NCBI GenBank assembly: GCA_964016885.1
Contig: OZ024741.1
Span: 371,690,001 to 371,754,000 of the forward strand
Origin: Eledone cirrhosa
Lineage: Eukaryota
Direction of reading: 5' to 3'
Length of the DNA: 64,000 nt
Below, piece by piece: positions 11,311-25,066 of the stretch; position 1 is the stretch's first letter, and every line of letters begins with the position of its first letter. A program made the translations under genes and the position numbers. Under the pieces are notes generated by a model that worked only from the letters and a program-made list of their open reading frames with translations, was not told where the DNA came from and made no database searches.

Positions 11311-11420
11311 TCCTCAACAAGTAAACTTGGTGGGGTTGCCGGTTTAGTCGCCGACGCTCCGACCATGCGACAGGTTGTACTAGGTTACATGTTACCAGTA
11401 GCACTCAAGAGTGACCCGAC
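11308..11420 (-). mobile_element. 5' terminus fragment of the RTE-derived family (variant C)
   Basis: Homologous to 12285-12396 and 20650-20756; abuts (CATA)n. Confidence 0.7.
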
Positions 11421-11439
11421 ATACATACATACATACGTA

Positions 11440-11730
11440 TAAGTACAATCCATTAATGGAACAGTAAACATATGTAAAACATTCCAAAAATTTTGCATCT
11501 AATAAATGCATATACACATGTACAGATACAAAGCATATACACATGCACACATACAACTCAAAACATACACATCCACACATACAATAACATCCATATCTAC
11601 ACATGCATGCATACATACATATCTACCTAGTTGATGTGTAAATCCCAATGAGAGAGTCTTGTGTCTATGTTAGAAACCGACTCTCTCTCTCTATTGGTAA
11701 AACTTTGTGAAATTATAAAACCAGAAGAAC
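11440..11730 (+). repeat. ~290-bp unclassified repeat embedded in (CATA)n
   Basis: AAGTACAATCCATTAATGG...ATTATAAAACCAGAAGAA(CATA)n; copies at 24644-24945, ~46920-47145 and a deleted copy at 47542-47635. Confidence 0.75.
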
Positions 11731-11786
11731 ATACATACATACATACATACATACATACATACATACATACATACATACATACATAC

Positions 11787-12396
11787 ATGGTGTCTGCCAA
11801 CTCGTTTTCGAGTACGGCCACTACTTTATATCCATGTAGGATAACCCCTACTGATGCGCTGAACGAGTGTGACTTTTTAGTCCAGCCAGCGACTTCAAAA
11901 CTCTGGTACAAACACTATACTTGTGACAATTATTGACACATAGTGCTGGGCCCATAGTACCATGTGACGACAAGTGCAGAGAGATCTCCAGATATAAAGC
12001 AATACCTGTGCCGTGAAGCTTTTATAGTGAGCAAAGGCACTGCATAAAGCCAGTCCCACTCTCTTAACCAAGATGATATTTACCAAAAAGAAGAACAAGT
12101 CAACATCATTGGATACCATCAGGGTTGCAGGTGTTATATCAGAGTTTTCCTTCTCCTAGAATTCTGCCTTGACAAAGGCTAAGGGGTCATCTCTCCCGGT
12201 GATTTTGGATGGCCATTGACTCTTATGAGCTCCTTTGCCCTTTGACAGGTTTTGTTTTTAGTCCCGCAGGATGTCCAAAGTCACCCTCCTCACCAAGAAA
12301 CCCTGGTGGGGTTGCCAGTTTAGTCGCCAACGACCCGACCATGAGACAGGTTGTACTGGGATACATATTATCAGTAGCACCAACTGGTGACCTGAC
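11787..12396 (-). mobile_element. Bipartite non-autonomous RTE derivative (family A)
   Basis: RTE-type 5'UTR (CTAGGAGAAGGAAAACTCTGA motif) fused to a 3' end encoding a C2H2-like CTRV.KSLAGLKSHTRSAH, a CTCG-AAAA-CGAG terminal hairpin and a (GTAT)n tail. (CATA)n on both flanks. Confidence 0.75.
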
Positions 12397-20249: not shown

Positions 20250-20756
20250 ATCGTGCAATGCCTGTGCGTGAAGATATTTTTTAAAGTGAGGAAAGACTGT
20301 GCACTGAGCCAATCCCACTCTCTGAGCGACAGTAGCTATAATCCGGAAGGAAGAAAAGATCAACATCATCGGTAACTACTGAGCCGCAGGTTTTATATCG
20401 GAGTTATCCCAGTCTCCTGAGTTACCTTCTCCTAGAAGAATGCCCTGACAAAGGCTAGGGGTCCTTCACTCCCACTGGTTTAACCGCGTGATCGGGTGTC
20501 CAGCCCGACTATTTCTATGTCCCCGCGCATATACATACATATGCACATGTGTATATACATATTTATACACTTTTGGATGGCCATTGACTCTTATGAGTTC
20601 TTCCGCCCTTTGTCAGGTTTTGTTTTTTGTCCTGCAGGGTGTCCCAAATCACCCTCCTCACCTTGGTGGGGCTGCCGGTTTAGTCGCCGACGACCCGATC
20701 ATGCGACAGGTTCTACTGGGTTACATGTTACCAGAATCACCCAAGAGTGACCCGAC
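20250..20756 (-). mobile_element. RTE 5'UTR variant B (3'-truncated)
   Basis: Diverged homologue of the family A 5' part with a ~90-bp internal insertion; copy at 22658-23164. Confidence 0.7.
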
Positions 20757-20793
20757 ATATATACATGTATATATACATATATACATACATACA

Positions 20794-21451
20794 TGATGGC
20801 TGCAAACTCTGCCAAGAGTTTTACAATCGCTTGTCAGATTCGGATGTGGGACGCTCGGATATGGCTTTTCAAGCCTGCTAGAGACTTGCACTTCTTCACA
20901 CACTGACAACAACTATGGATCTCCCTGGCTTGAGGTCCCGCATCAGGTTGCCCTTGAACCCTCACAACACCGTGGAGATCATAGTTCACTGGTTCTCTTT
21001 GAACATGGCTGTGACTGTGGCTCCTGAGACCAGATTTGCTCAAGCAAATTTTTCCACACTCAGGGCACTTCAATTCAATGGAGACACCGATCGTTTCGAA
21101 AGATACACCAGGGCATTGCTTACGCACATCCCTTTTTGATCTTCTCATAGTCTATGCACCTGTCCTCAAAATTATGGACCCCATCATTAACCATTCCACG
21201 CCAAGGTTCTCTTTCAAGAGCTTCTATCTCCCAGTCAGCCATCATCAAACCAGTTTTTTTCAATGAGTCCTATACACAATCCTTGAATCGGAGCTTTGGA
21301 TTGTGAGGTTGTCTCTTACCCTCACAAAGCGCGCCATACAAGAGTTATTTTGGGATTCGATCATCCTCCATTCTGCAGAGGTACCCGGTCCATCGCAAAC
21401 GCCGTTGGTGGATGATACTCTCAATGCTCCGACACTCACTTCTCTCAAGGA
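20794..21451 (-). pseudogene. 5'-truncated RTE LINE 3' end with C2H2 fingers, flanked by (CATA)n
   Basis: VLERS..SIESII.QRRLRWTGYLCRMEDDRIPK*, CPECGKICLSKSGLRSH..H, CQCVKKCKSLAGLKSHIRASH; copy at 23202-23859. Confidence 0.85.
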
Positions 21452-24400
21452 CATACATACATACATACATACATACATACATACATACATACATACATAC
21501 ATACATACATACATACATACATAGATACATACATACATACATACATACATACATACATACATACATACATACATGGTGGCTGCCAACTCGTTTTCGAGTA
21601 CGGCGACTACTTTATATCCATGTCGGAGAACCCCTACCAATGCGCTGAACGAGTGTGACTTTTTAGTCCAGCCAGCGACTTGAAAACTCTGGTACAAACA
21701 CTAGACTTGTGACAATTATTGTGCTGGGCCCATGGTACCATGTGACAAGTGCAGAGAGATCTCCAGATATAAAGCAATGCCTGTGCCGTGAAGCTTTTAT
21801 AGTGAGCAAAGGCACTGCACAAAGCCAGTCCCACTCTCTTAACCAAGATGATATTTACCAAAAAGAAGAACAAGTCAACATCATTGGATACCATCAGGGT
21901 TGCAGGTGTTATATCAGAGTTTTCCTTCTCCTAGAATTCTGCCTTGACAAAGGCTAAGGGGTCATCTCTCCCGGTGATTTTGGATGGCCATTGACTCTTA
22001 AGAGCTCCTTTGCCCTTTGACAGGTTTTGTTTTTAGTCCTGCAGGATGTCCAAAGTCACCCTCCTCACCAAGAAATCTTGGTGGGGTTGCCAGTTTAGTC
22101 GCCAACGACCCGACCATGAGACAGGTTGTACTGGGATACATGTTACCAGTAGCACCAACTGGTGACCTGACATACAGGTCAATGTAAATATGTATACATA
22201 CATACATATTTACATACACAGACATACATATATATACATATATGATGATGGCTGCCCCCTCGTTATCGAGTATGCCCAGGTTGACTTTGCCTTTCATCCT
22301 TACGGGGTCGATAAAATAAAGTACCAGTAATGCACTGCGTAATTGCTGGCCTTGTGCCTAAAGAAGAAACAATTATTAATAATTGCTTCTACTTTTAGGC
22401 ACAAAGCCAGCAAATACCCAGTGCATTACTGGTACTTTATTTTATCGACCCCGTAAGGATGAAAGGCAAAGTCAACCTCGGCGGGATTTGAACTCAGATC
22501 GTAAAGGGACGTAACTATGCTGGAAAGCATGCCGTCCGACCCTCTACCGATACTGCCAATCCACCAGAAATAATAATAAAGTACCAGTAATGTACTGGGT
22601 AATTGCTGGCCTTGTGCCAATAGTAGAAACAATTATTAATAATGATTAATTAATTCTATCGTGCAATGCCTGTGCGTGAAGATATTTTTTAAAGTGAGGA
22701 AAGACTGTGCACTGAGCCAATCCCACTCTCTGAGCGACAGTAGCTATAATCCGGAAGGAAGAAAAGATCAACATCATCGGTAACTACTGAGCCGCAGGTT
22801 TTATATCGGAGTTATCCCAGTCTCCTGAGTTACCTTCTCCTAGAAGAATGCCCTGACAAAGGCTAGGGGTCCTTCACTCCCACTGGTTTAACCGCGTGAT
22901 CGGGTGTCCAGCCCGACTATTTCTATGTCCCCGCGCATATACATACATATGCACATGTGTATATACATATTTATACACTTTTGGATGGCCATTGACTCTT
23001 ATGAGTTCTTCCGCCCTTTGTCAGGTTTTGTTTTTTGTCCTGCAGGGTGTCCCAAATCACCCTCCTCACCTTGGTGGGGCTGCCGGTTTAGTCGCCGACG
23101 ACCCGATCATGCGACAGGTTCTACTGGGTTACATGTTACCAGAATCACCCAAGAGTGACCCGACATATATACATGTATATATACATATATACATACATAC
23201 ATGATGGCTGCAAACTCTGCCAAGAGTTTTACAATCGCTTGTCAGATTCGGATGTGGGACGCTCGGATATGGCTTTTCAAGCCTGCTAGAGACTTGCACT
23301 TCTTCACACACTGACAACAACTATGGATCTCCCTGGCTTGAGGTCCCGCATCAGGTTGCCCTTGAACCCTCACAACACCGTGGAGATCATAGTTCACTGG
23401 TTCTCTTTGAACATGGCTGTGACTGTGGCTCCTGAGACCAGATTTGCTCAAGCAAATTTTTCCACACTCAGGGCACTTCAATTCAATGGAGACACCGATC
23501 GTTTCGAAAGATACACCAGGGCATTGCTTACGCACATCCCTTTTTGATCTTCTCATAGTCTATGCACCTGTCCTCAAAATTATGGACCCCATCATTAACC
23601 ATTCCACGCCAAGGTTCTCTTTCAAGAGCTTCTATCTCCCAGTCAGCCATCATCAAACCAGTTTTTTTCAATGAGTCCTATACACAATCCTTGAATCGGA
23701 GCTTTGGATTGTGAGGTTGTCTCTTACCCTCACAAAGCGCGCCATACAAGAGTTATTTTGGGATTCGATCATCCTCCATTCTGCAGAGGTACCCGGTCCA
23801 TCGCAAACGCCGTTGGTGGATGATACTCTCAATGCTCCGACACTCACTTCTCTCAAGGACATACATACATACATACATACATACATACATACATACATAC
23901 ATACATACATACATACATACATAGATACATACATACATACATACATACATACATACATACATACATGGTGGCTGCCAACTCGTTTTCGAGTACGGCGACT
24001 ACTTTATATCCATGTCGGAGAACCCCTACCAATGCGCTGAACGAGTGTGACTTTTTAGTCCAGCCAGCGACTTGAAAACTCTGGTACAAACACTAGACTT
24101 GTGACAATTATTGTGCTGGGCCCATGGTACCATGTGACAAGTGCAGAGAGATCTCCAGATATAAAGCAATGCCTGTGCCGTGAAGCTTTTATAGTGAGCA
24201 AAGGCACTGCACAAAGCCAGTCCCACTCTCTTAACCAAGATGATATTTACCAAAAAGAAGAACAAGTCAACATCATTGGATACCATCAGGGTTGCAGGTG
24301 TTATATCAGAGTTTTCCTTCTCCTAGAATTCTGCCTTGACAAAGGCTAAGGGGTCATCTCTCCCGGTGATTTTGGATGGCCATTGACTCTTAAGAGCTCC

Positions 24401-25066
24401 TTTGCCCTTTGACAGGTTTTGTTTTTAGTCCTGCAGGATGTCCAAAGTCACCCTCCTCACCAAGAAACCTTGGTGGGGTTGCCAGTTTAGTCGCCAACGA
24501 CCCGACCATGAGACAGGTTGTACTGGGATACATGTTACCAGTAGCACCAACTGGTGACCTGACATACAGGTCAATGTAAATATACATACATACATACATA
24601 CATACATACATACATACATACATACATACATACATACATACACAAGTACAATCCATTAATGGAACAGTAAACATATGTAAAACATTCCAAAAATTTTGCA
24701 TCTAATAACTGTATATACACATGTACAGATACAAAGCATATACACATGCACACATACAACTCAAAACATATACATCCACACATACAATAACATCCATATC
24801 TACACATGCATGCATGCAGACATGCATACATATCTACTTAGTTGATGTTATGTAAATTCCAATGAGAGAGTCTTGTGTCTATGTTAGAAACCCACTCTCT
24901 CTCTATTGGTAAAAATTTGTGAAATTATAAAACCAGAAGAACATACATACAGGTAGTGGTAGTGGTAGTGATGCGTGCTAATGCCAGTTGGTCAGTTGCA
25001 AGTTTATAGTTGATTATTTTTTTTCTATTTTTCTTCTTTTTCGACACACACACACACTACAAACTG

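Follow-up and report, generated by a model that had tools for sequence, protein, structure and literature searches.

Within a 64,000-nucleotide stretch of the Eledone cirrhosa genome (assembly GCA_964016885.1, contig OZ024741.1, positions 371,690,001 to 371,754,000; hereafter the window), we analysed a recurrent 83-nucleotide (nt) motif that heads retrotransposons of the RTE clade of long interspersed nuclear elements (LINEs), a motif that an earlier note had put forward as an unrecognised self-cleaving ribozyme. The feature is real, but the evidence does not support reading it as a new ribozyme; it is likely a cellular exoribonuclease-resistant RNA (xrRNA) at a LINE 5′ end. Nucleotides 1–57 match the flavivirus subclass-1a xrRNA in layout and core bases, and the knotted three-way junction predicted for them probably halts 5′–3′ exoribonucleases and so would set the 5′ end of the element. 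The head stands at the start of both autonomous and non-autonomous elements, matches the viral structure, joins its flank about 3 nt upstream of its first base, G1, and holds no hepatitis delta virus (HDV)-like fold.

Seven 83-nt copies lie on the minus strand of the window after a (TATG)n or (TA)n flank, at 12314–12396, 19681–19763, 22089–22171 and 24481–24563 (subfamily A), 20674–20756 and 23082–23164 (B) and 11338–11420 (C). They stand where they had been reported; not all are independent, because 19591–21998 and 21999–24406 are a tandem duplication (unit 2,408 bp, 100% identity over the first 1,800 nt), and the copies at 19681 and 22089, like those at 20674 and 23082, therefore count once each. 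The duplicated region (19591–24406) contains A, a fragment of RTE family 2 and B, and the B copies of the window are damaged at three core positions. Searched against the 3.0-Gb genome, a 26-mer of the motif gives 15,319 perfect matches and its reversed control none. That the motif is the head of an element is borne out by copies anchored on its 3′ part, 22/30 and 39/53 of which extend to G1, the DNA upstream of G1 being unrelated among those that do.

In the A copy the xrRNA-like core occupies 24507–24563 (minus strand, as are all coordinates in this paragraph) and comprises G1-U2, the stems P1 and P2, the junction base C20, P3 with its loop L3, C44-A45 and the segment S4. The P1 5′ strand CAGGU (24557–24561) pairs with ACCUG at 24514–24518 in 99.2% of alignment cells. 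It is followed by the P2 hairpin (24545–24556), which holds the sole both-side change within the present genome (C-G/U-A), and by P3 and L3 (24521–24543), where A22-U42 would make a U·A-U triple with U2. The CAUG of L3 (24531–24534) faces the CAUG of S4 (24507–24510) in a second pseudoknot, PK2, with 99.0% of cells paired; the linker ahead of S4 (51–53) is variable. Three upstream nucleotides, TAT (24564–24566), were likely on the template, and the U at −1 can pair with A45 as a second pair of the first pseudoknot, PK1, beside G1-C44. Downstream lies a P4-like module, GUCG..CGAC-UAAA-CYGGC (24481–24506), which may be a long hairpin or a small pseudoknot; its UYGG loop and CYGG co-vary across subfamilies and could make a small second pseudoknot bridged by UAAA. 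Sequence and folding further indicate a CACC..GGUG hairpin at 24458–24475.

Set side by side with natural viral examples, the head has the same layout element by element: G-U, a 5-bp P1, P2, one C, P3 with A-U as its second pair, C-W, P1′, then 3 nt of linker and a 4-nt stretch complementary to L3. Such features have been published for subclass 1a (PMC8374639, PMC7527734, PMC13161572). With flavivirus subclass-1a xrRNAs the head shares the 5-bp P1, the three-way junction, the single C between P2 and P3, the bases of the U·A-U triple, a predicted G-C pair in PK1, the 2-nt J3/1, the L3–S4 PK2, the downstream hairpin, the orientation that protects RNA on the 3′ side and a deduced end 5–6 nt before P1. 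It differs in residing at the 5′ end of a cellular retrotransposon rather than in a viral 3′ untranslated region (UTR), and in its two U-A junction pairs, self-complementary CAUG PK2 and sub-threshold Rfam score. The three-way junction with 5-bp P1, variable P2 and P3 is present in silico; C20 is found in 147/152 copies, A22 in 147/152 and U42 in 150/152 (U2 being fixed by the search), with A22, U42 and U2 being the bases for the predicted triple contact. C44, which would pair with G1, is kept in 147/152 copies, and subfamilies A, B and D have U-A as the second PK1 pair. PK2 comprises 4 bp, within the subclass-1a range of 3–8 bp. Changes between subfamilies sit in loops and the linker or preserve pairing, and the model pairs 96.0% of cells, or 97.5% with an alternative P4 register.

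The viral comparison set consisted of 23 pattern-fetched stretches, 16 of them near the end of 10.6–11.1-kb IMG/VR contigs and taken on that ground to be flaviviral. Core identity to the Rfam consensus is 18/22 in A and D and 17/22 in B, against 22/22 by construction in the viral loci, and the four differences in A are two compensatory C-G to U-A swaps. Of 82 ungapped copies, 53 pass a structure descriptor, as do 9 of the 16 viral loci; no match occurs in 2,226,052 background bases, and 7 of 359,333 dinucleotide shuffles pass, the best of these reaching 14/22 identity. In two small Rfam scans RF01415 (Flavivirus_SLIV) was the best non-microsatellite match, across all 75 positions, with 23.4 bits (E 0.062) in the first and 15.3 bits (E 1.2) in the second. 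The 60-nt core alone folds with a P1 probability of 0.95–1.0 in four subfamilies; nested folding of the viral controls gave P1 probabilities from 0.06 to 1.0, with 5 of 16 at or below 0.10. From other organisms, represented by 30-letter loose ends only, come a P2 with two more changes on both sides, seen in one organism, a linker that varies while CAUG is kept, and a lone contig with the G43-U45 of viruses.

The junction between flank and head points to where the template began. A TT step is rare in TA/TATG flanks (2.9% background), yet 25 of the 130 distinct flanks have one at −4/−3 (p 9e-14), with a weaker excess at −5/−4 (8/130, p 0.04); the signal was found in 15/81 flanks and replicated in 7/36 newly fetched ones. 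The extra bases read TTAT in 21 cases and TTGT in 4, and among eight informative target-site duplications three have 3–4 extra nt and one has 10. The TT excess and these duplications make it likely that the cDNA included about three bases in front of G1 and thus reached to 5 nt before P1. The motif lies at the 5′ end of the element, as had been claimed, while the boundary falls about 3 nt upstream of the base that had been named as the first. On mosquito-borne flavivirus xrRNAs, Xrn1 halts 5–6 nt before P1 (PMC5760640), and on a designed xrRNA it halts two positions upstream of PK1 (PMC13161572). The junction at −3, with the TT excess also at −5/−4, corresponds to 5–6 nt before P1 and fits the published halt distance, as an indirect signal read from DNA junctions.

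The fold proposed earlier was a multi-way junction closed by nt 1–5 and 79–83. In an alignment of subfamilies A, B/C and D (31 rows, 26 distinct), its hairpin 2, UACUGG/CCAGUA and CAUG/CAUG pairings hold up. The covariation of the closing stem is not general, as pair 4–80 is broken in 8/26 distinct rows and in 21/152 copies: it is A-U in A, G-C in B and A·C in 8/26 rows, chiefly from the autonomous family, and A·C likewise accounts for 19 of the 21 broken copies. Position 4 thus pairs with 80 in 131 copies and with 49 in 151 of 152. The GUCGC/GCGAC stem has one pair broken in 15/26 rows. Both stems were rejected as the core fold since they are broken in subfamilies, and the junction closed by nt 1–5/79–83 is not the best model; the A/B difference in the closing stem also looks like CpG decay.

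Part of the earlier interpretation stands, namely that the RTE 5′ end carries a conserved structured RNA in the slot where relatives have HDV-like ribozymes, and that this RNA fits no known ribozyme, which Rfam scans, an HDV descriptor and a core-motif check all bear out. The suggested Rfam search gave no ribozyme match, with a sub-gathering RF01415 the best non-microsatellite match. The description of the fold as unrecognised does not survive, given the likeness of nt 1–57 to the viral xrRNA, and self-cleavage is unsupported in view of the breaks in the closing stem, the lack of an HDV match and a template 5′ end near −3 rather than at G1. An HDV ribozyme would place the element end at G1. 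The HDV-like fold, a nested double pseudoknot in which L3 and a catalytic C are conserved, had no strict match in five heads of the motif family, and by the strict descriptor none of the heads of A, B, C and D holds an HDV-like ribozyme. By the same descriptor, L184, L203 and L206 have canonical folds, making 3 of the 19 upstream regions taken from related RTEs; in the metagenome relative L184 the first base of the HDV-like fold (54–145) comes directly after (TATG)n, and in L203 and L206, also from metagenomes, it lies upstream of the open reading frame (ORF). A version with relaxed L3 was rejected, its matches not beginning at the element end. Rfam at gathering level returned no match in the whole window, and hammerhead, twister, pistol, hatchet and hairpin ribozymes had no Rfam match at E ≤ 10, a search of limited sensitivity. 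The clear HDV-like fold of L184 went undetected by Rfam, as did those of L203 and L206, and Rfam silence on ribozymes is therefore weak evidence. Core motifs of the same five classes are absent from A, B and D, again in a test of limited sensitivity. Schistosoma retroelements reportedly carry twister variants. RTE, R2, Ingi and other LINEs carry 5′ HDV-like ribozymes (PMC5786205), with which the present head shares its position and likely its purpose, the release of the element from a host co-transcript; it differs in lacking the nested double pseudoknot, in ending near −3 instead of G1 and in that it would need a host nuclease instead of catalysis.

Several observations weigh against the assignment to an xrRNA. 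The 23.4 bits of RF01415 are far under the gathering threshold of 54.5, and a genome-wide search with this model recovered three copies of the motif element with non-significant E-values; its E-values were only 6.6–9.0, and of 14 control genomes 7 gave matches too. Both sets had already been inspected when the descriptor was drawn up, and the viral set was picked by our own pattern. Mosquito-borne virus xrRNAs have only C-G at the two junction-closing pairs (PMC13161572), and the head departs from the subclass-1a pattern of a C-G-only junction and conserved P1 sequence in its U-A pairs U7-A46 and U21-A43; four copies among the matches listed have a C7·A46 mismatch. The subfamily with U45 has U at −1 in 64 of 65 matches listed (the remaining one is unrelated), so that the second PK1 pair becomes U·U and is lost, as it also is in 1 of 16 viral loci. 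A covariation test of PK1 was negative, PK2 shows one-sided changes only, and covariation within the genome is thin, with one both-side pair that is not above shuffles. Nested folding of 87 nt favours the rival stem 1–5/79–83 in A (0.94) and B (0.64), RNAalifold selects that stem, and the structure with it has the better shuffle statistic. Such a statistic can arise from relatedness, and covariation within the genome is for that reason not decisive between the folds. At 133 nt neither P1 nor the 1–5/79–83 stem forms and a long-range helix appears instead; in the A copy (24440–24563, minus strand) a helix of nt 1–11 with about 111–124 dominates nested folding at 127–133 nt and might act as a switch. 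Among 80 metagenome RTE loci no convincing xrRNA-like head was found, though only some 26 of them extend to the start of the ORF and the true 5′ end is missing from many. IMG/VR scans with the element's own variants gave 0 and 8 matches, the eight being without convincing stems except for one lone phage-like match. Four of the eight target-site duplications have no extra nucleotide, and all end in TAT/TGT, compatible with either position of the boundary. Finally, the same signal in the DNA would be expected from a promoter with a fixed start, or from a new ribozyme whose cut lies at −3.

The latter two possibilities lead to different accounts of the head. It could act as an internal promoter, or as a module bound by proteins, from which transcription begins about 3 nt upstream, with a real xrRNA-like fold that only stabilises the RNA or serves translation or ribonucleoprotein assembly without making the end. 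There is precedent in L1Tc, whose 77-nt head serves as promoter as well as ribozyme, and in the heads of the LP-SINE short interspersed elements, proposed as promoters (PMC4758252). We nevertheless consider this account unlikely, as the halt distance published for Xrn1 (PMC5760640) independently predicts −3/−4, the extra bases vary between TTAT and TTGT, as expected if they came from donor flanks, and there is no tRNA head. A new self-cleaving ribozyme, as in the earlier proposal but with the site shifted to about 3 nt upstream of G1, appears very unlikely: a known non-catalytic fold explains nt 1–57, members of the autonomous family break the closing stem that was proposed, and the searches above, of limited sensitivity, saw no catalytic core motif of a known kind. 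In its favour, it would share the slot of the HDV-like ribozymes of relatives, Rfam silence says little after the miss in L184, and the downstream module (58–83) with its invariant UAAA is left unexplained.

The flavivirus likeness might instead be chance in a generic multi-hairpin 5′ UTR, its sharp end resulting from microhomology with TATG targets. The Rfam E-value of only 0.062, folding z-scores of the 87-mers that are unremarkable (−0.5 to +0.3), the competing folds and the 8/30 copies that truncate within the motif, several at TATG-like points, all suit such a view. The descriptor, by contrast, is silent in 2.2 Mb, no shuffle exceeds 14/22 identity, the head departs from the viral core in exactly compensatory ways and the TT step breaks the microsatellite register, as microhomology alone would not, all of which make chance a decidedly unlikely explanation.

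On the xrRNA interpretation, element copies would be read through from host transcription, in debranched introns or post-cleavage transcripts. Xrn1 or Xrn2 would degrade the uncapped upstream RNA and stop 5–6 nt before P1 at the knot, and the protected RNA would then be reverse transcribed in full by the RTE protein, the nuclease roadblock serving as the HDV-like ribozyme does in related RTEs. Because it departs from one consensus feature and its resistance is a prediction, we class the head as working like a subclass-1a xrRNA, not as a member. A bolder version is possible but doubtful: that this LINE lineage gave up its self-cleaving ribozyme in favour of a true homologue of the flavivirus xrRNA, either taken from a virus through template switching or itself the ancestor of the viral element, giving a working cellular xrRNA amplified to tens of thousands of copies and matured by a host exonuclease. 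According to a 2021 review, xrRNAs were characterised only in viruses, and it asks whether eukaryotic genomes hold them (PMC8374639); listings from searches of the open-access literature showed no case of a natural xrRNA in a retrotransposon or cellular setting. If correct, the present assignment would provide a cellular xrRNA, add a third route to a LINE 5′ end beside promoters and ribozymes, and connect flavivirus and transposon RNA evolution.

The motif heads an autonomous RTE LINE family plus its ~600-nt non-coding derivatives. Element A (~607 nt) consists of the head, an RTE 5′-UTR domain also present in Repbase RTE alignments, a remnant of the zinc-finger end of the ORF and a (TATG)n tail. 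It joins an RTE 5′ end to an RTE 3′ end, which makes it a bipartite non-autonomous RTE as PMC5786205 uses the term; the TAGGAGAAGG domain is common to it and the RTE 5′ UTRs described there, while the 83-nt head itself has no match in the motif searches of that supplement. The assignment to the RTE clade comes from Pfam, tblastn and domain matches, not from a tree, and the traits present are one ORF with apurinic endonuclease (APE) and reverse transcriptase (RT), a microsatellite tail and the 5′-UTR domain. Near-identical A elements were found in sequencing runs of about 16 organisms. The window carries 3′ fragments from two autonomous families. Family 2 (fragment at 23200–23858, minus strand), ~50–60% identical by tblastn, has full-length copies elsewhere that begin with the motif, 450–700 nt ahead of the ORF; among 20 fetched loci, four start at GTCAGG or the variant GTCAAG and one is cut within the motif; the U45 search adds 14 loci, out of 30, with an endonuclease match downstream. 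Family 1 (3′ ORF fragment at 18312–19086, minus strand) is young, with an intact APE-RT-zinc-finger ORF by Pfam, and was ruled out as the carrier, as its full-length copies have a different 5′ end. In L066, L069 and L080 this end is long, lies upstream of the ORF, includes a splice-donor-like GGGGTAAGT and comes straight after the TATG tail that ends an A or a B element.

ARAGORN predicted no tRNA gene in window positions 11000–25000, arguing against a tRNA-derived head. The 70-bp head of LP-SINE/Nimb-17_LMi (PMC4758252) is likewise a portable ~70-nt module common to LINEs and short interspersed elements, for which a promoter role is proposed there; its sequence differs from the present head in the supplement rows compared. 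An octopus RTE is described as expressed in PMC9115989, the portion consulted mentioning no ribozyme.

The full A element of the window is at 23967–24563 (minus strand), with its (TATG)n tail at 23859–23966. Further minus-strand A copies lie at 21575–22171 (within the tandem duplication), 19159–19763 and 11789–12396, and a 5′-truncated A without head is on the plus strand at 16001–16410. The B copy at 22247–23164 (minus) has C20, A22 and C44 altered and an inserted inverted repeat, and its duplicate is at 19839–20756 (minus); a B/C-type head at 11308–11420 (minus) has its 3′ side cut off by another repeat. The inverted-repeat element inside the B copies (19866–20235 and 22274–22643) is abundant, with many further copies in the window. 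Long open frames at 27558–28631 (minus) and 33403–34680 (plus) have, by eye, the look of Penelope-type RT/GIY-YIG fragments, and within 50993–64000 a 41-bp array of 16 copies gives way to 354 copies of a 35-bp satellite.

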